A DNA stretch of 30,002 bases from Bacteroidales bacterium (GTDB lineage: Bacteria; Bacteroidota; Bacteroidia; Bacteroidales; UBA12077): positions 1 to 30,002 of the forward strand of contig JANQHR010000096.1 in the NCBI GenBank assembly GCA_028282585.1, given 5' to 3'. Shown here piece by piece: positions 999 to 8,932 of the stretch. A program made the translations under genes and the position numbers. Every line of letters starts with the position of its first letter. The stretch's first letter is position 1. The notes beneath the pieces are model-generated. The model was not told where the DNA came from and searched no databases. It was given only the letters and a program-made list of their open reading frames with translations.

Positions 999-1020
999 AG
1001 ATTATAAACTTATGTTAATT

Positions 1021-1986
1021 ATGAAACGAATCTCTTTTTTAATAATCATTATAATAGCATTAACATTTGTTAATTGTAAAAATACCGGACAAAAAAAAGG
1101 ACCCGAAAGCAAACAGCTAATCATTTTTCATGCAGGAAGTCTATCTGTACCTTTTAAACAGATGAAAGTACAATTTGAAAAAGAAAACCCAGGAACAAAT
1201 ATATTACTTGAATCTGCAGGTAGCGTAAAATGTGCACGAAAAATAACTGACCTAAAAAAGGAGTGCGATATTATGGCATCGGCAGATTATACAATTATTG
1301 ATAAAATGCTAATCCCGGAATATGCAGAATGGAACATTCAATTTGCTACTAACGAAATGTGCATAGTATATCATGATGAATCAAAATACTCAAAACTAAT
1401 AAATAGCGAAAACTGGTATGAAATTTTATTAAAAGATGATGTAATTTTTGGCAGGTCCGACCCTAACTCTGACCCTTGTGGATATAGAGCCATTTTAAGT
1501 ACCCAGTTAGCCGAAAATTACTACAATTATCTGGGTTTAACCGAAAAAATCAAGAGTAAAAACCAGGAATATATACGCCCAAAAGAAGTTGACCTACTGG
1601 CTCTTCTTGAATCAAATACAATTGATTATATTTTCCTTTATCGTTCGGTTGCTAAACAACACCAGTTAAAATACTTAATATTACCAGATTCTATTAACCT
1701 TAAAACTCCAAAGCTTAACCCACATTATAAAATTGCCAGCATTGATATATTAGGGACAGAACCTGGTACAACAATTACACAATACGGACAGGCTATGGTT
1801 TACGGTTTAACTATTTTGAAAGATGCCCCAAATAAAGACCTGGCTAATAAATTCATAGATTTCGTATTATCGGAAGATAAAGGAAGAAAAATATTAGAAG
1901 AAAACGGACAGCCAGCTATCTTATTAACTGATTCTATTTATCGAAATAAAATTCCGGCAGAATTAAATAAATACTTTTACAGGTAA
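1021..1986 (+). CDS. wtpA: Tungstate/molybdate ABC transporter substrate-binding lipoprotein, WtpA type
   Basis: Lipobox LTFVNC. WtpA motifs FHAGSL, SAGSV..ARKI, ASADY, SDPNSDPCGYR, RPKEVDLLALLE and YRSVAKQH. The start may be 1012 or 1021. Confidence 0.9.
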   Translation: MKRISFLIIIIIALTFVNCKNTGQKKGPESKQLIIFHAGSLSVPFKQMKVQFEKENPGTNILLESAGSVKCARKITDLKKECDIMASADYTIIDKMLIPEYAEWNIQFATNEMCIVYHDESKYSKLINSENWYEILLKDDVIFGRSDPNSDPCGYRAILSTQLAENYYNYLGLTEKIKSKNQEYIRPKEVDLLALLESNTIDYIFLYRSVAKQHQLKYLILPDSINLKTPKLNPHYKIASIDILGTEPGTTITQYGQAMVYGLTILKDAPNKDLANKFIDFVLSEDKGRKILEENGQPAILLTDSIYRNKIPAELNKYFYR

Positions 1987-2002: not shown

Positions 2003-2060
2003 TTTGATAATTCAAATAGCTTATTATTTTTGCAAGCGATATGCATAAAATTTCATATCA
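2003..2060 (+). promoter_or_regulatory. Second promoter (TTTG ... TAnnTTTG) with a downstream ModE-like operator
   Basis: TTTG at 2003-2006 and TATTTTTG at 2025-2032, then CGATAT-GCATAAAATTTC-ATATCA at 2037-2060 over the expected transcription start. Confidence 0.65.
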
Positions 2061-2094
2061 ATTATGCAATTCTAACCAAATTATAATTATAACA

Positions 2095-2664
2095 ATGAAA
2101 AAACTTATTTATTTATTCGTATTCGCTTTGATTGCAAGTACAACTTTCGTAGGGTGTGATGATGACGATGACAGTTCATCTCCTTTTAAAACAGTGACTC
2201 TTGGAGCCCAGTTAAATACTGAAATTGACGGTTTTTATTCAATGAACGAAGACAAAACCTATCCGTTAACCGATGCGGCTCAAAACCAATCAAAAATTGA
2301 TTTATTATGCTTTTATGAAGAAGGTAAAAATGATATTTCTTTAGCATCACCAGGAGCAAATATTACGGATATTTTTACTGGCGATAACGACCCGGTAGAT
2401 TGGGCTGTGAAAGATACAACCTGGTTTCATCAAGTTGATGAAAATTTAATGACAGTTGCTGCATTTGATGCACTTTCGGAAAGTGATGTAATTATAGAAA
2501 CATTATTTGACGAAGAAAACAAAAAACGAAAAGCAAAATTATTACAACCAGGAGATATTTATGCTTTCCAAAATGAGGATAACCAATACGGTTTATTTAA
2601 AGTTGTTACTGTTACTCAAGGCGAAGCTGGTTCGGTACAATTCACTTATATTCTAAAAAAATAA
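2095..2664 (+). CDS. Putative surface-exposed lipoprotein (paralog of the C-terminal domain of the next gene)
   Basis: The ATG at 2095 gives the signal peptide MKKLIYLFVFALIASTTFVG-C followed by DDDDD, an acidic export signal. Motifs LGAQ.N, IDL, SP, W and YGLFKV. Confidence 0.8.
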   Translation: MKKLIYLFVFALIASTTFVGCDDDDDSSSPFKTVTLGAQLNTEIDGFYSMNEDKTYPLTDAAQNQSKIDLLCFYEEGKNDISLASPGANITDIFTGDNDPVDWAVKDTTWFHQVDENLMTVAAFDALSESDVIIETLFDEENKKRKAKLLQPGDIYAFQNEDNQYGLFKVVTVTQGEAGSVQFTYILKK

Positions 2665-2665
2665 A

Positions 2666-2790
2666 AACACTTTCGGGTGTTCTTTCTCTGAATGCTTACT
2701 GTAAATTTTAAGAAGTTTGCGGTAAGCATTAAAAATAAAGTTTGTGAGCTTTTAAACAACCCAGGGACACCCCTTATAATTACTGTAAAT
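2666..2790 (+). ncRNA. Structured intergenic RNA element (candidate cis-regulatory or stability element)
   Basis: An 18-bp stem at 2691-2730 with three G-U pairs, an outer stem pairing 2675-2684 with 2763-2772, and an alternative UUCG-loop hairpin at 2666-2681. Confidence 0.45.
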
Positions 2791-3694
2791 GATGAAAGTT
2801 TATAAGCTTTTTATTGTTTTCATCTTCTTATGTTTTGCCTTTTCCTGTGCAGAAGATGAACTACCTGAAACTAACCCTTTTGTTATACTTAAACCTGGTG
2901 CTGAATATACACAAAATGGAACTTCTGTACCCATAGGCGGACAAATTAAATTTGGAATATCTGCGGTTGGAGATGGCACTGCCATAACCAATTTAACAAT
3001 ACAAAGAATAACGGATAAAGAAATTATTACAGAATTAGACCAGGGAATGTATATTAAAACCGGAGGCCTGGACACTACAGTAACATTTGTAAAAGGGCCT
3101 GCTGAACATGAAACCTGGCGGTTTATCATCATGAATGGGCATCGAGATACAGCTTCGGTATCAACTATTATTTATTTAGGAGAAGGTAGTGCATACGGTG
3201 AAATTGATTACTTCCCTTCTATCATAATAGGCTTTCAAAATAATACAGAACTACCTTATTACGTGGATTTACATACAGGTAAGGCATATGATAATACAAC
3301 TATTGCAGGGCACGAACCTTCAATTGATTTAACAAGTTATTACTATTTAAGCTCAGGAAAATCTTCTCCTACCCTGTCATGCCCGGGATATGAAACAGCA
3401 AGATATTACCATCCGGAAATAAGCAGCTGGTCTGTTCAAAACTCTACTTTATACGATTATGAAACGACAGACTATGATTTAATCGCAACTGAAGAGTTTG
3501 ATGCTGCGCAAAATGACAGCTTATTAGTTAACGCATATATTCCGAGTAGCGTTAGTGGAACATGTAAATATTGTTATACCGATAAGATCATTCCATTTAA
3601 AACATCTGATGGTAAATACGGATTAATTAAAGTTTTACATGCAGACGAGTTTGATACTGGTTACATGGAACTTGCTGTTAAAATTCAAAAATAA
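2789..3694 (+). CDS. Putative surface lipoprotein with an N-terminal beta-rich domain and a C-terminal domain paralogous to 2095-2664
   Basis: Lipobox FAFS-C followed by AEDE. The C-terminal half has IGFQNN, IDL, SCP, W..QNST and FKTSDGKYGLIKV. Confidence 0.8.
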   Translation: MMKVYKLFIVFIFLCFAFSCAEDELPETNPFVILKPGAEYTQNGTSVPIGGQIKFGISAVGDGTAITNLTIQRITDKEIITELDQGMYIKTGGLDTTVTFVKGPAEHETWRFIIMNGHRDTASVSTIIYLGEGSAYGEIDYFPSIIIGFQNNTELPYYVDLHTGKAYDNTTIAGHEPSIDLTSYYYLSSGKSSPTLSCPGYETARYYHPEISSWSVQNSTLYDYETTDYDLIATEEFDAAQNDSLLVNAYIPSSVSGTCKYCYTDKIIPFKTSDGKYGLIKVLHADEFDTGYMELAVKIQK

Positions 3695-3704
3695 CAATCA
3701 AGCA

Positions 3705-6026
3705 ATGAAAAAATACATGCTTATCATAGCATTTCTGTTATTGATTTTTACAAAACTGTTTGCACAATCAAAACTAAATGGAATTATATACAATTCTGAA
3801 AATAATGAAGTTGTAAGTTATGCCAACATCTCCATTAACGGGCAGGCAGTTGCTGTAAGTAACGAAAAAGGACAGTTTTCAATAGAAAATATAAAACCCG
3901 GAGAATATTCGGTTATTATTTCTTATGTAGGTTATGAGATATTGAAAAAGCAAATCGATATTGATGAAAACAAAATTCAAAACCTTGAATTTAAATTAAA
4001 ACCAACCTCTTACTTAACGGGTGAGGTTGTTATTACAGCTACAAAAACTGAAAATTATATTCAGGATATTCCGGTAAGAGTTAGCATTGTTTCTTCACGG
4101 CAAATAGAAAACATCCCGGCACAAACTACAGATGAACTCCTGAGCTTTGTCCCGGGTGTTAATGTTAGCAGGAATTTTGGGATTTTCTCGCATCATTCAA
4201 GGGTTACCATGCGTGGGCTCAACGGGCAAGAACAAGGCCGTGTGTTGGTAATGGTTGATGGTATCCCCACCAATAAAGCCGATGGTGGTTCTGTAAACTG
4301 GAATTTAATGAATACAGGACAGATTGAGCGCATTGAAGTTGTAAAAGGACCCGGGTCATCACTTTATGGAGGCAATGCAATGGGTGGCGCAATTAATATA
4401 ATTACGAAAAAACCGACCAAGAATTTTCAGGGAAAAGTTAGTGCCAATTATGGGACATATAATACCATAGGCGGTCAACTTTATTTATCCGGCAAGCTAA
4501 ATCCGGAAGCTGAAAAAGGATTTTACTGGAACTTAAACAGTTTTTACAGGCAAAGCGATGGTTACATAACAGCCTCAGAAGCTGAACAACTAGCTAACCC
4601 TTATATTGCTGAATCCGATTTAATGGAATGGGGAACCTCAGCTAAATTGGGATATGATATTAATCCAACTAGCAATATCGAGTTAGGTCTTTTATATTAT
4701 GATGACGATAGGGCCACAGGCGAAAGAGTTTATCAACCCGAAGGAAATAATCGCGAACACGATACTTACCATTTAAAAGCTAAATATTCTGGCAATAAAA
4801 ACAAAACACAATGGAATGTAAGCGTCTTTTATTTGAACGAAGATTATAAGCGAATTAGCGAATGGATGAAAGATGATTACACCTTTTATAAAGTACTTTC
4901 AAACAGAATTGATTTTGGCGTTTTATCAACTTTATCGTATGATTTGGATAAACATATTATAACCGTAGGAATAGACCTTAAACAAGGAAGCGTTGATGCT
5001 ATAGATGAATATTTTACGTCTACTGATATTGTTTACAATAGGGGTAAAATGAATACTTTTGGGTTATTCATTCAGGACGAAATTCATTTATTTGATGATA
5101 AAATCAAAATTGTTGCCGGGCTTCGGTTCGATTACGCTAACTTTTTTGATGGAGGATTCGAAATTGAAGCACCTACATCAGAAACTACATTTATGCTAAA
5201 TTATCATAATGAAAATCTTTCTGAAGATAATTGGAACGCACTGAGCCCAAAGTTATCATTACAATATAAGTTTAATAACAACTACCGAATTTATGTCAAT
5301 TATGCCAGAGGATTCAGGCCTCCGGTACTAGACGATATGTGCCGCTCGGGCAGAATCAGAGGTGGATTTAAAGTTTCCGACCCAAGTTTGCAACCTGAAT
5401 ACCTAAATAATTTTGAACTAGGCGCTGATACCAGGTTACTTGACCGCCTAAGAACTTCCTTGTCTGCGTATTACTCTCTTGGAAACGATTTTATGTATTA
5501 TGTAAATACAGGGGATTCGATTCAGTTTAGTTATGGCCCAAGGCCAATTATTAAAGCTTCAAATATTTCTGAAGTTGAGATCTATGGATTTGAATTCGAA
5601 GTTAATTACAGATTCTTGGAAAACATTATCCTGAATACCAATTATGCTTATGCACATTCACAAATTACTAATTACGAGCCTTTAAATATGGATGATCCGA
5701 TTGATTTAACCAACAAATATCTTGCGGATGTTCCCAACCATATGGCTACAGCCACTTTACAATGGCAAAATAAAATTGTGAATGCGGGAATAACAGCTAA
5801 ATACACAGGCAAACGCTGGGTAAATGATACGAACCAATATGATGATATTGTTCAGGATAACCAATACGATGCATATACCATTATGGATTTAAAATTGTCC
5901 AAATCAATCAAAAAAATATTTGTAAGCCTTAATGTTCAGAATATTCTGGACACTAAGTTTTACAACAGCAAAGGGGCCGTTAATCCCGGCAGGTTTATAA
6001 CATTTGAATTAGGAACAAGATTTTAA
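3705..6026 (+). CDS. TonB-dependent outer-membrane receptor (BtuB/CirA-like) with an N-terminal carboxypeptidase-regulatory-like domain
   Basis: The ATG at 3705 gives the signal peptide MKKYMLIIAFLLLIFTKLFA. TonB box EVVITATKT, plug motifs VLVMVDGIP and IERIEVVKGPGSSLYGGNAMGGAINIITKK, and a C-terminal Phe (ELGTRF). Confidence 0.93.
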   Translation: MKKYMLIIAFLLLIFTKLFAQSKLNGIIYNSENNEVVSYANISINGQAVAVSNEKGQFSIENIKPGEYSVIISYVGYEILKKQIDIDENKIQNLEFKLKPTSYLTGEVVITATKTENYIQDIPVRVSIVSSRQIENIPAQTTDELLSFVPGVNVSRNFGIFSHHSRVTMRGLNGQEQGRVLVMVDGIPTNKADGGSVNWNLMNTGQIERIEVVKGPGSSLYGGNAMGGAINIITKKPTKNFQGKVSANYGTYNTIGGQLYLSGKLNPEAEKGFYWNLNSFYRQSDGYITASEAEQLANPYIAESDLMEWGTSAKLGYDINPTSNIELGLLYYDDDRATGERVYQPEGNNREHDTYHLKAKYSGNKNKTQWNVSVFYLNEDYKRISEWMKDDYTFYKVLSNRIDFGVLSTLSYDLDKHIITVGIDLKQGSVDAIDEYFTSTDIVYNRGKMNTFGLFIQDEIHLFDDKIKIVAGLRFDYANFFDGGFEIEAPTSETTFMLNYHNENLSEDNWNALSPKLSLQYKFNNNYRIYVNYARGFRPPVLDDMCRSGRIRGGFKVSDPSLQPEYLNNFELGADTRLLDRLRTSLSAYYSLGNDFMYYVNTGDSIQFSYGPRPIIKASNISEVEIYGFEFEVNYRFLENIILNTNYAYAHSQITNYEPLNMDDPIDLTNKYLADVPNHMATATLQWQNKIVNAGITAKYTGKRWVNDTNQYDDIVQDNQYDAYTIMDLKLSKSIKKIFVSLNVQNILDTKFYNSKGAVNPGRFITFELGTRF

Positions 6027-6040
6027 TAAAAACACTTTAT

Positions 6041-7105
6041 ATGAAAAATTACTTTTTAATAGCATTTGCAGGATTGGTGTTATCATCCTGTAATGTTAAC
6101 GACACAAATGAAAATAATTATTTAAGACAAACTACCGCAGATAATATTGATGCTACCAATGATTTCTACGATAATGCAGAAACTTTCGAATTACCAGTAA
6201 AATCAATAGCCATAGAAGGAGAAATTGAAAATCCCGGAATAGTCGATTTTTCAAAAATACCATTAAGAAGTATTATTGTTAAGGAAACCTTACTAACAGA
6301 AAATGGCGATCAATTTGTTGGTGCATATAGATATGATGGTTATGCCCTTTATGATATCCTGAACCTCGTTAAATTAAATAAAAAGAATAAAGAAGAATTT
6401 AACCCAATTATCGATTTGTATGTTCAACTGGAAAATGATAAAGGAGAAAAAGTTAATATTAGTTGGGGGGAAATCTTTTATCCAAACCATTTACAGGAAA
6501 TCATCATTGCCAAAAGGGTAATGCGAATCGTTCCTTCAAAAACAAAAGAATTATGGCCACTGCCTGTTTCAGGTAAGTTGGTTGTTGCAAGCGATTTGAT
6601 TACGGAAAGAAACATCTCTGATCCTGTAAAAATAACCGTAAAATCTTACCCAAAATCTTTTGAAACCGTTAAAGGACTAAAGCCTTTATATTCTCCTACC
6701 ATAGATATTTTTGATGAAAATAAAAAAGTAGTTACTTTGACTGAGAATCCTAAGGAATTGCAAATAGAAGAGTATCATACTATTTTTTATGGCAGGGGAA
6801 AGGGTATTCATTCTACACAACCATTTACAGGAGTTATGCTTAGAGATATTTTAAAAGATTATATAGAATTTAACAAAAAAAATATCCGTGAAGGGATTTT
6901 TTTAGTTGTTGCAAAAGATGGTTATAGAGGAACTTTCACTTTTAGCGAAGTAATGAATAGAAATGACCAATCGGAGATTTTATTGGTTTGCCGCCCGGAA
7001 GTAAATGATAATGGTATATTTCGTTTATTCCCTGCGTGCGACTTTTTCTCTGACAGAGCAATAAAAGGAATCAACGCTATTTATTTTTCGGCTAACGAAC
7101 AGTAA
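6041..7105 (+). CDS. Lipoprotein with two tandem molybdopterin-oxidoreductase-like (sulfite oxidase/MsrP fold) domains
   Basis: Lipobox LVLSS-C. Repeat 1: YDGYALYDIL..ENDKGEKVNISWGEI..KLVVASD..RNISDPVKITV. Repeat 2: FTGVMLRDIL..AKDGYRGTFTFSEV..FRLFPACD..RAIKGINAIYF. Confidence 0.65.
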   Translation: MKNYFLIAFAGLVLSSCNVNDTNENNYLRQTTADNIDATNDFYDNAETFELPVKSIAIEGEIENPGIVDFSKIPLRSIIVKETLLTENGDQFVGAYRYDGYALYDILNLVKLNKKNKEEFNPIIDLYVQLENDKGEKVNISWGEIFYPNHLQEIIIAKRVMRIVPSKTKELWPLPVSGKLVVASDLITERNISDPVKITVKSYPKSFETVKGLKPLYSPTIDIFDENKKVVTLTENPKELQIEEYHTIFYGRGKGIHSTQPFTGVMLRDILKDYIEFNKKNIREGIFLVVAKDGYRGTFTFSEVMNRNDQSEILLVCRPEVNDNGIFRLFPACDFFSDRAIKGINAIYFSANEQ

Positions 7106-7107
7106 AA

Positions 7108-7902
7108 ATGTATAAGAACAAGTTAAGGAGTTTAGACATAGTATTTATATTTCTTGGAGGGCTGGTACTGTTATTCATTATTAGCCCGCTTCTTGGCATG
7201 TTTTTATCTACTACACCAATCCAATTATTTGAAACATCTAAAGATCCTGAAGTTCTAAAAAGTATTTGGTTAACCTTGAGAGTTTCATTCCTTGCCACTA
7301 TTTTTTTTGCTATTGGTGCAATTCCCCTTTCTTACTTCTTGGCCAGAAGTAATTTTAGGCTTAAAAAGCTAATTAACGGAATTATTGATTTACCAATAGT
7401 TATTCCTCATTCTGCAGCTGGAATAGCAATTCTTGGCTTTATTTCGCGTGATTCAGTTTTAGGAAAAATAGCTTCATCCGTAGGATTAAATTTTGTAGGG
7501 CACCCGGTTGGAATAGCATTAGCCATGGCCTTTGTAAGCATCCCTTTTCTAATTAATGCTGCCCGCGATGGTTTTGAAAACGTACCGGTAAAACTTGAAA
7601 AAACTGCATTAAACTTAGGTGCTTCGCCAGTTCGAGTTTTCTTTTCTATTTCTTTGCCCCTGGCATGGAAAAATATATTATCAGGACTGGTCATGATGTT
7701 TGCCCGAGGTTTAAGCGAATTCGGAGCTGTAGTTATTGTAGCATACCACCCAATGATTACACCTGTTATGATTTATGAGCGTTTCGGCTCATTCGGTCTC
7801 AAATATGCACGACCCATTTCTGTGTTGTTTATCCTGATTTGTTTAATATTCTTCATTTTATTGCGAGCTTTAACTAAAGAAAAGGAACATAGAAATGCTT
7901 GA
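7108..7902 (+). CDS. wtpB: Tungstate/molybdate ABC transporter permease (WtpB/ModB)
   Basis: Multi-TM protein with IIDLPIVIPHSAAG, the EAA loop LEKTALNLGASPVRVFFSISLPLA, and ARGLSEFGA. Confidence 0.9.
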   Translation: MYKNKLRSLDIVFIFLGGLVLLFIISPLLGMFLSTTPIQLFETSKDPEVLKSIWLTLRVSFLATIFFAIGAIPLSYFLARSNFRLKKLINGIIDLPIVIPHSAAGIAILGFISRDSVLGKIASSVGLNFVGHPVGIALAMAFVSIPFLINAARDGFENVPVKLEKTALNLGASPVRVFFSISLPLAWKNILSGLVMMFARGLSEFGAVVIVAYHPMITPVMIYERFGSFGLKYARPISVLFILICLIFFILLRALTKEKEHRNA

Positions 7903-8932
7903 GTTAAAAAACATATCGGTTAAGCTAGGTGAATTTCAGCTCAAGAATATTAACCTGCAATTAGAAAAAGGAGATTATTATGTTCTTTTAGGTAAATCCG
8001 GTGTTGGTAAAACGGTACTTCTGGAGATAATAGCTGGTTTAATAAAACATAGAGCCGGACAGGTAATTCTAAATAATGTAGATATCACAAACCATAAAAT
8101 TCAAAACAGAAAAGTTGGGATAGTTTTTCAAGATTATTCCATCTTTCCTCATCTTAATGTATGGCAAAACATTTTATTTCCTATAAAAAAAAGGAAAATT
8201 AGTAAAAAGCGTAAAGAGGAACTTGTTAAAAAATTTGCGGAACTAACTAATATTTCGCATCTTTTAGATAGAAATCCCCAGAACTTGTCCGGAGGCGAAT
8301 TACAACGTGTTGCTTTGGCTCGTACTCTAATAACTGAACCTGTTTGCCTTCTGCTCGACGAACCATTAGCCTCACTTGATGTGCAATTAAAAAATGGCTT
8401 AAGAAACTTACTTAGAAAAATTAACCATAATGGTGTAACGATATTACACGTAACACACGATTATGAAGAAGCCATTGCTTTATCAAACAAAGTAGCTGTT
8501 GTTCACGAAGGAGAAATAATTCAAAAGGGTCTTACCAAAGAAGTATTTAAAAGGCCAGCTAATGAGTTTGTCGCAAATTTTACTGGAATAAAAAACTTCT
8601 TCATCGCAGAATTTTTACCAGAAAATATTGCAAAAATAAATGGTAAGATACAAATAAAAGTATCTAATAAAGCCAACTTGCAAAAAGGGAGAATTATCAT
8701 TAGGGGAGAAGAGATTATATTATCAAATAATAAAATTGAATCCAGCGCAACAAACAATTTTAAAGGAAAAATTTTACAAATCATTCCGTATTTAGCCAAT
8801 TACGAAATTATAGTCGATATTGGAATTGAACTTTCAGTTGTTATTTCGGAAGAATCACTCCATATATTAAGTATAAAAGAAGGCTATGAAATTTGGGCAT
8901 CTTTTAAATCTACTGCTATGAAGGTTATATAA
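7895..8932 (+). CDS. wtpC: Tungstate/molybdate ABC transporter ATPase with C-terminal TOBE domain (WtpC/ModC)
   Basis: Walker A GKSGVGKT, signature LSGGELQR, Walker B LLLDEP, H-loop VTHD and TOBE SSATNNFKG...FKS. Overlaps the permease stop. Confidence 0.9.
   Translation: MLELKNISVKLGEFQLKNINLQLEKGDYYVLLGKSGVGKTVLLEIIAGLIKHRAGQVILNNVDITNHKIQNRKVGIVFQDYSIFPHLNVWQNILFPIKKRKISKKRKEELVKKFAELTNISHLLDRNPQNLSGGELQRVALARTLITEPVCLLLDEPLASLDVQLKNGLRNLLRKINHNGVTILHVTHDYEEAIALSNKVAVVHEGEIIQKGLTKEVFKRPANEFVANFTGIKNFFIAEFLPENIAKINGKIQIKVSNKANLQKGRIIIRGEEIILSNNKIESSATNNFKGKILQIIPYLANYEIIVDIGIELSVVISEESLHILSIKEGYEIWASFKSTAMKVI

Follow-up and report, generated by a model that had tools for sequence, protein, structure and literature searches.

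The Pyrococcus-type ATP-binding cassette (ABC) importer WtpABC takes up tungstate or molybdate, and to our knowledge the described Wtp systems consist of three components, with neither an outer membrane receptor nor a fourth periplasmic protein. For zinc, AztD loads AztC and ZinT loads ZnuA, both acting as periplasmic metallochaperones for ABC binding proteins. Here, we analyzed a 30,002-nucleotide stretch of the genome of a Bacteroidales bacterium (GTDB UBA12077; NCBI GenBank assembly GCA_028282585.1, contig JANQHR010000096.1, positions 1 to 30,002 of the forward strand), referred to below as the window, which carries in a WtpABC-type operon the gene of a tandem sulfite oxidase (SUOX)-fold lipoprotein of 354 amino acids, P0001 (6041..7105, + strand), recognized from its open reading frame (ORF), its AlphaFold2 (AF2) model, and its structural matches. 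We propose that P0001 is a noncatalytic, cofactor-free, membrane-tethered periplasmic protein serving as an accessory binding component of this tungstate (or molybdate) importer, a role for which we put the chances at about even.

P0001 has to be compared with two groups of SUOX-fold proteins. With the SUOX molybdoenzymes (sulfite oxidase, SorA, SoxC, and YedY/MsrP; PF00174), its predicted structure shares the fold of the molybdenum cofactor (Moco) domain, with VIA-align Z scores of 9.8 to 11.0. Unlike these enzymes, it has no molybdenum-ligating cysteine, no twin-arginine translocation (Tat) signal, no dimerization or heme domain, and no redox partner gene, and it falls under the PF00174 cutoff (14.1 versus 24 bits). 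PruR, described for Agrobacterium tumefaciens (Atu3496) and proteobacterial homologs and represented by PDB entries 7kos, 7kou, 7rkb, 7kom, and 7kp2, is, according to its description (PMC11194511), likewise a periplasmic, noncatalytic, minimal SUOX-fold domain without the molybdenum-ligating cysteine. However, PruR is a single domain of ~170 amino acids with a plain signal peptide, whereas P0001 has two domains and is a lipoprotein; PruR carries a tryptophan at the cysteine position (PW motif) and holds pterin in a Tyr/Trp sandwich, the pteridine ring being contacted by an Asn; and its gene precedes that of the cyclic di-GMP (c-di-GMP) enzyme DcpA, whereas P0001 belongs to a tungstate importer operon of Bacteroidota. 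The C-terminal domain of P0001 keeps the Tyr of a DGY motif and contains no Trp, and it thus cannot have either of the PruR tryptophans, while W142 and W172 of the N-terminal domain compare with PruR at the level of motifs only. We assign P0001 neither to PruR nor to the SUOX enzymes.

RESULTS

Two predicted SUOX domains without the molybdenum-ligating cysteine

The AF2 model of P0001, built with 34 homologs, reached a pLDDT of 83.9 and a pTM of 0.81. The top Foldseek matches of this model in the PDB were exclusively SUOX-fold proteins (E values of 4e-5 to 2e-3), among them YedY (1xdy, 3.6e-5), SorA (2blf, 1.1e-4), plant sulfite oxidase (1ogp, 1.8e-4), nitrate reductase (2bih), and PruR (7rkb, 7kom, 7kos, and 7kp2). 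VIA-align placed the model on SUOX-fold structures with Z scores of 9.7 to 11.0, unrelated structures beginning at a Z score of 5.7. The N-terminal domain (residues 54 to 201; 6200..6643, + strand) aligned with the PruR chains 7kos, 7kou, and 7rkb at Z scores of 10.0 to 10.1, with a root mean square deviation of 2.3 to 2.7 over 113 to 116 residues, and the C-terminal domain (residues 219 to 350; 6695..7090, + strand) with 7kom (Z score of 10.6) and 7kp2 (Z score of 9.7). Sequence conservation supports both domains as well, and a weak Pfam Oxidored_molyb match (E = 0.035), the subthreshold PF00174 hit mentioned above, covers residues 252 to 305 only. In the model, each half of P0001 is a whole SUOX Moco-domain fold, closest to the minimal PruR domain.

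An initial annotation of the window, made by a model from the sequence, had pointed to two internal repeats, to the lack of a cysteine upstream of either GxxL motif, and to a resemblance to sulfite oxidases, all of which held. The four elements of the repeat are present in both halves at the spacing that was given: Y98-x-G100-x-x-L103-x-D105-I-L107 and F262-x-G264-x-x-L267-x-D269-I-L271; G135-E-x-x-x-I140-S141-x-x-E144 and G294-Y-x-x-x-F299-T300-x-x-E303; K179-L-x-x-x-x-D185 and R328-L-x-x-x-x-D334; and R190-x-I192-x5-I198 and R339-x-I341-x5-I347. A blastp comparison of residues 46 to 205 with residues 206 to 354 gave an E value of 2e-4 (24% identity over 111 columns), and hhalign on the alignments of the two halves gave an E value of 0.005 with a probability of 7%. 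The internal repeat is beyond chance, yet weak in sequence, and it is the match of the predicted structure to the SUOX fold in each half that settles the two-domain architecture.

The only cysteines of P0001 are C17, C317, and C333, and none of them precedes either GxxLxDIL motif. Among 187 aligned family members, no column of the mature protein holds a cysteine in more than 60% of the sequences, C317 being replaced by Y, D, or G and C333 by G, S, or A in many of them. As also noted in the initial annotation, the N terminus is a Sec-type signal peptide cleaved by signal peptidase II (MKNYFLIAFAGLVLSSC, lipobox LSSC with the lipidated Cys17; 6041..6091, + strand) without twin arginine; an RR motif within the first 30 residues occurs in 0 of the 120 closest homologs, and a lipobox-like motif in 89 of 118 homologs. 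Lacking both the molybdenum-ligating cysteine and a Tat signal, P0001 is therefore exported unfolded and without cofactor, and SUOX-type catalysis is thus excluded.

Very strong conservation is found in the polar motifs GAYRYDGY, SWGE, RIVPSK, and DLITERN of the N-terminal domain and FYGRGRGIHS, DGYR, NRNDQ, and DFFSDRAIK of the C-terminal domain. The two tryptophans, W142 (SWGE) and W172 (LWPLP), are both in the N-terminal domain, and the DGY motif of the C-terminal domain corresponds to D293, G294, and Y295, with Tyr kept in 115 of 119 stand-alone members.

Relationship to the SUOX family

No PDB chain was found at E values of ≤10 in sequence searches with P0001 or the family profile, and no NCBIfam model matches P0001. 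The ESM Atlas yielded only Bacteroidota clusters without a name and, at 0.91, a single Oxidored_molyb cluster. The search of 1.84 billion sequences with the family profile retained 363 representatives at E values of ≤1e-3, among which several distant relatives (profile E values of 1e-21 to 1e-33) pass the Pfam Oxidored_molyb cutoff of 24 bits with up to 46.8 bits. These profile-linked relatives support true homology of P0001 to the SUOX family, beyond mere likeness of fold. Among PDB chains, the distant relative P0270 reached only Thermus sulfite oxidase, with an E value of 2.

Some of these distant relatives have an odd domain composition. P0202, P0217, P0225, P0226, P0232, P0240, P0252, and P0269 pass Oxidored_molyb and end in a tetrapyrrole-methylase-type domain that stays below all NCBIfam equivalog cutoffs, and the methylase-fused relatives bear signal-like segments at their N termini. 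A CxxCH motif (DCKTCH, DCKSCH, or SCKNCH) is carried by a first-domain loop in three of the four distant relatives read (P0232, P0229, P0225, and P0270). An apparently exported methylase domain together with a possible heme c site makes an odd pairing.

Conserved association with Wtp genes

A word-index protein search returned 2,312 proteins at E values of ≤1e-3; among the best 120 of them, every named protein is annotated as hypothetical, and precomputed Pfam domains are absent throughout. In species-representative genomes, 462 of 482 pattern-matching stretches encode a relative, which puts the family in about 460 species. The locus counts given below refer to the best 80 of these 462 stretches, in which neighbors were identified by tblastn with the proteins of the window. 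Nearly all of the 80 come from Bacteroidales or other Bacteroidota, including Rikenellaceae, Lentimicrobiaceae, and Prolixibacteraceae. This genome has a single copy of the family.

Wtp genes and/or a TonB receptor cassette stand beside the family gene in 62 of the 80 loci. At least one Wtp gene is present in 54, with the receptor directly upstream of the family gene in 28 and without it in 26, many of the latter being simple WtpA-X-WtpB-WtpC rows (X being the family gene); in 8 further loci, the receptor is upstream and the locus sequence holds no Wtp gene. The gene directly downstream encodes WtpB in 35 loci and WtpA in 8; the one directly upstream encodes the receptor in 36 loci and WtpA in another 14. 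The association persists through a reshuffled gene order (WtpA-X-WtpB-WtpC, receptor-X-WtpB, or X-WtpA-WtpB). This survey, which the initial annotation had called for, showed that the gene keeps its position between the genes of a TonB receptor and of the Wtp importer. In the window itself, P0001 starts 14 nucleotides past the end of the receptor gene and its stop codon ends at 7105, leaving the gap of 2 nucleotides before the ATG of wtpB (7108) that had been noted earlier. Where the gene stands away from Wtp genes, its neighbors vary, examples being a GntP permease with glycerate kinase and PorZ with RecO, and all 5 such carriers among the genomes tested have a WtpA above the cutoff elsewhere in the genome.

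Fusion proteins add to this association. In P0148 and P0339, the tandem domain is followed by a WtpA-type substrate-binding protein (SBP), and in P0306 the SBP comes first; with TIGR03730, the SBP portion of P0148 reaches 288.1 bits (cutoff of 242.75). The second moiety has lost its signal peptide in all three, so that read-through artifacts are excluded.

Co-occurrence with tungstoenzymes

This genome encodes four AOR-family tungstoenzymes (AFOR_N) and four Mo/W-bis(pyranopterin guanine dinucleotide) (bisPGD) enzymes. AFOR_N was found in 10 of the 10 carrier genomes tested versus 5 of 400 other, evenly sampled Bacteroidia genomes. The family profile found no match at E values of ≤1e-20 in these 400 genomes, showing how rare the family is; a cross-tabulation inside the sample was therefore impossible, and the carriers were reached through their loci instead. 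The tandem family tracks tungsten use, being restricted to tungstoenzyme genomes. In two genomes with a stand-alone tandem gene, the distance between WtpA and a gene of the AOR family is ~1.5 kb (G408:C1 95418-98367 and G409:C2 119443-122394), which ties Wtp directly to a tungstoenzyme.

Moreover, this genome encodes MoeA and MoaC and thus makes its own Moco, so that the import of ready-made cofactor is unnecessary. A separate ModA is encoded on another contig (147.9 bits; cutoff of 62.5). With its own Moco synthesis and a separate molybdate route through ModA, the Wtp locus of this genome is likely the tungsten route.

Neighboring genes and orientation in the envelope

The window presents a single, tightly packed row of + strand genes: wtpA, lipoA, lipoB, the receptor gene, P0001, wtpB, and wtpC. 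WtpA (1012..1986, + strand) is a tungstate-type ABC substrate-binding lipoprotein (NF003196, 378.2 bits for a cutoff of 355; TIGR03730, 325.6 bits for a cutoff of 242.75; Pfam SBP_bac_11), with the lipobox FVNC and no acidic run past the Cys. It is followed by the lipoprotein LipoA (2041..2664, + strand), which has the acidic run CDDDDD, no Pfam family, and a weak match to NigD1/NigD2 (19.9 bits for a cutoff of 60), and by the lipoprotein LipoB (2789..3694, + strand), with CAEDE at its Cys and no Pfam family. LipoA is a paralog of the C-terminal half of LipoB, as indicated by tblastn cross-hits at 24 to 42% identity. The AF2 model of LipoB (pLDDT of 90.0) has a predicted DUF4466-like fold, its Foldseek match being 4ei0, an uncharacterized DUF4466 protein of Parabacteroides merdae (E = 1.9e-10); this fold gave no clue to the ligand of the receptor.

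The TonB-dependent receptor (3639..6026, + strand) combines a CarboxypepD_reg-like domain (PF13715, E = 7.5e-16), a plug (PF07715, E = 2.3e-26), and a barrel (PF00593, E = 8.2e-48), and among NCBIfam models it matches the TonB-hemin subfamily best, with 249.7 bits, under the cutoff of 316.85. The listed ORF shares 56 nucleotides with lipoB, and an internal Met at ~3705 precedes the signal peptide MKKYMLIIAFLLLIF; because of this overlap, the true start is probably at ~3705. Downstream of P0001 are a WtpB-like ABC permease (7108..7902, + strand; Pfam BPD_transp_1), whose best NCBIfam match, NF040839, scores 274 bits for a cutoff of 340, and a WtpC-like ABC ATPase ending in a TOBE domain (7895..8932, + strand; Pfam ABC_tran and TOBE), with NF040840 as its best match at 352.8 bits for a cutoff of 440. 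The wtpC gene overlaps wtpB by 8 nucleotides.

As a rule, surface lipoproteins of Bacteroidota carry an acidic export signal after the lipidated Cys. At least two D/E residues at positions +2 to +6 past this Cys were counted in 4 of 89 tandem homologs and 3 of 20 WtpA proteins, versus 12 of 16 LipoB orthologs, whose consensus in this region is CKKDE. Judged by this rule, the tandem protein, as WtpA, probably faces the periplasm, and LipoA and LipoB are probably surface-exposed partners of the receptor.

In seven loci (L032, L034, L039, L041, L042, L044, and L049), a second and more divergent receptor with its lipoB/lipoA cassette (26 to 42% identity) adjoins the first, usually on the opposite strand, suggesting that this cassette was duplicated.

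Upstream region of wtpA

Positions 976 to 997, 5' of wtpA, form an imperfect inverted repeat (GATATAT-N8-GCATATC) that overlaps a TAnnTTTG-type promoter element. The repeat arm TGCATATC was found 5' of wtpA in 11 of 46 upstream regions (in one case as TGCATAT only), and at the locus L003 the repeat is perfect (GATATGC-N8-GCATATC). This inverted repeat may be considered a candidate operator. The motif CGnTATATA, which we take to be the E. coli-type ModE half-site, occurs upstream of wtpA in 1 of the 46 regions, that of the window alone, and a search of this genome, whose completeness is 98%, did not detect the N-terminal family of ModE. The confinement of the half-site to the window and the lack of ModE in the genome leave regulation in response to molybdenum or tungsten unsupported here. 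Rfam riboswitch searches gave no match in the window, and seven related loci gave only rRNA.

DISCUSSION

That the tandem protein keeps its place between the receptor, WtpA, and WtpB, occurs fused to WtpA, and is restricted to genomes with tungstoenzymes argues for an accessory role in the import of tungstate (or molybdate). The initial annotation had considered an apo-exported, noncatalytic protein acting between the receptor and the ABC transporter, and on these points the SUOX-like fold, the missing cysteine, the type of export, and the conserved gene place support it. A scavenged pterin cofactor, one of the cargoes that it proposed, was not supported: the genome encodes MoeA and MoaC, WtpABC is of the oxyanion type, no receptor directly precedes the family gene in 26 of the 80 loci although these have Wtp genes, and the fusions are to WtpA. 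The handling of a metal species, presumably a tungsten or molybdenum oxyanion, fits better. Altogether, the family is real, well conserved, and undescribed in the literature accessible to us, it forms a new variant among the cofactor-less SUOX-fold binding proteins, and the tandem protein probably belongs to a system for acquiring tungsten.

We propose a model in which a scarce metal species would cross the outer membrane via the co-encoded TonB receptor and the two surface lipoproteins where these are present, and would enter through porins at the loci without a receptor. The tandem protein would then capture this metal species in the periplasm and pass it to the high-affinity WtpA, which would dock on WtpBC. 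The proposed logic is that of AztD and ZinT in the handling of periplasmic zinc, by which an extra periplasmic metal binder co-encoded with an ABC importer would load the cognate binding protein; unlike P0001, AztD and ZinT have unrelated folds and their metal is zinc. Complex prediction for WtpA (residues 31 to 324) with the tandem protein (residues 38 to 354) gave no answer, with a score of 0.00, and weighs neither way. In its most specific form, the model would make P0001 the first chaperone known for tungsten (or molybdenum) in the periplasm, a cofactor-less, duplicated derivative of the Moco fold that binds the free oxyanion or a tungsten complex released by a dedicated TonB-dependent receptor and loads WtpA; we regard this form as possible, with the balance somewhat against it.

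Several observations weigh against a role in tungsten import. The major one is a set of 67 clusters (~642 amino acids) in which the module is joined with a beta-aspartyl peptidase/asparaginase of the periplasm (Asparaginase_2, PF01112). These fusions are found among P0271 to P0338 and at the loci L094 to L096, L099, L100, L119, L124, and L144; the fused module shares ~51% identity with P0001, keeps all of its motifs, and has an ordinary signal peptide without lipidation. Wtp or receptor genes are absent from nine metagenome contigs with such a fusion, where genes for MutS2, prolyl oligopeptidase, and an ECF sigma factor form a housekeeping neighborhood. With an Asparaginase fusion as the query against the 400 sampled Bacteroidia, the 150 matches listed were stand-alone asparaginases only. 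A function devoted solely to Wtp would not lead one to expect the Asparaginase_2 fusion, which is the main evidence against a purely tungsten-related role. In addition, the SBP fusions are rare, being three in number, with P0306 and P0339 each known from one sequence on one contig and P0148 as a cluster representative. Neither Wtp genes nor a receptor are found in the locus sequence of 18 of the 80 loci, several of which are short contigs, and 8 of these 18 span ~10 kb upstream (2 of them on both sides), with varied neighbors. The 5 of 400 Bacteroidia with AOR have no family member at E values of ≤1e-20, and thus the tandem protein is not required for tungsten use; moreover, the co-occurrence counts are not independent, since the carrier genomes are mutually related. 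Finally, the motif set of P0001 is also present in the distant relatives fused to tetrapyrrole-methylase domains, and the ligand may therefore be other than tungsten or molybdenum.

These observations bear on what else the protein could do. A general periplasmic function unrelated to tungsten, such as the binding of peptides or metabolites, with the place in the Wtp operon as a matter of lineage history, would account for the 67 Asparaginase_2-fusion clusters in housekeeping neighborhoods without Wtp genes and for the 18 loci of varied context. We hold it to be unlikely, as the adjacency to Wtp genes survives the reshuffling of gene order across the loci of Rikenellaceae, Lentimicrobiaceae, Prolixibacteraceae, and Bacteroidales, as the WtpA fusions are independent and exist in both orders, and as AOR is present in all carriers tested versus 5 of 400 in the background. 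A peptidase-type hydrolase as fusion partner would also suit an organic ligand, and P0001 might then be a PruR-like binder of pterin or of another small heterocycle, sensing or sequestering periplasmic pterin and modulating the transporter or the receptor rather than carrying metal. PruR chains are indeed the best full-domain structural matches of both halves, the C-terminal domain keeps the DGY motif in nearly all stand-alone members, and PruR is itself a periplasmic, cysteine-less SUOX-fold protein shown to bind pterins (PMC11194511). Nevertheless, PruR has the Tyr/Trp sandwich and a Trp at the molybdenum-cysteine position, the only tryptophans of P0001 being W142 and W172, which belong to the N-terminal domain and to other motifs, with none in the C-terminal domain; no gene of the DcpA type (GGDEF/EAL) is nearby, the neighbors being transport genes; and the WtpA fusion together with the restriction to AOR-bearing genomes favors a metal. 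A pterin-binding role appears to us improbable to the same degree as a general periplasmic one.

Lower still do we place an enzyme or carrier that would use a scavenged or alternatively ligated molybdenum or tungsten cofactor, or a variant converting thiometalates or other complexes into the oxyanion accepted by WtpA. The SUOX fold itself, the many invariant Arg, His, Tyr, Asn, and Asp residues that are compatible with an active site, and the origin of many carriers as metagenome-assembled genomes from digester, sediment, and groundwater samples would agree with it. Against this stand the lack of the molybdenum-ligating cysteine, Sec export in an unfolded state, the genome's own Moco synthesis, a WtpBC permease of the oxyanion type, and an operon without a redox partner gene, and moreover the matched core is a truncated PruR-type domain, the cleft of PruR being too shallow for Moco according to PMC11194511, so that this alternative is very unlikely. 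The capture of the ligand at the cell surface could also be considered. BtuG and HmuY-type proteins are surface partners of receptors in Bacteroidota, and P0001 is a lipoprotein with a receptor directly upstream in 36 of the 80 loci; a surface lipoprotein feeding the TonB receptor would nevertheless be expected to carry the acidic signal, which is found in 4 of 89 homologs versus 12 of 16 LipoB orthologs, while 26 loci have Wtp genes and no receptor directly upstream, the fusions are to the periplasmic WtpA, and an ordinary signal peptide, without lipidation, is found in the clade fused to Asparaginase. This makes surface capture the least probable of these explanations. An accessory binding component of WtpABC in the periplasm is thus the reading that we retain.

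The passage of tungsten and molybdenum across the outer membrane and the periplasm of Gram-negative bacteria is poorly described. In the portions of the literature accessible to us, the ModA/IcmP route of Pseudomonas was the sole outer membrane and periplasmic route found for these metals, and no periplasmic helper was found in the literature on tungstate and molybdate uptake. Within the accessible portions of the literature on TonB, tungstate/molybdate, WtpA, and PruR, a scope outside which the SUOX-fold survey of Workun (2008) falls, no such protein is described, and neither "Bacteroid" nor "tandem" occurs in a 2026 review of pterin signaling.

Our analysis points to a cofactor-holding fold that has seemingly been recruited, without its cofactor, for the uptake of the metal itself. 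If true, the cofactor-less SUOX-fold proteins would comprise a second functional class in addition to PruR, a TonB-dependent tungsten pathway would gain a testable model, and the gene could serve to mark dependence on tungsten in anaerobic communities. Should the chaperone function hold as well, the locus would represent a whole-envelope tungsten acquisition pathway of four to seven genes in anaerobic Bacteroidota.

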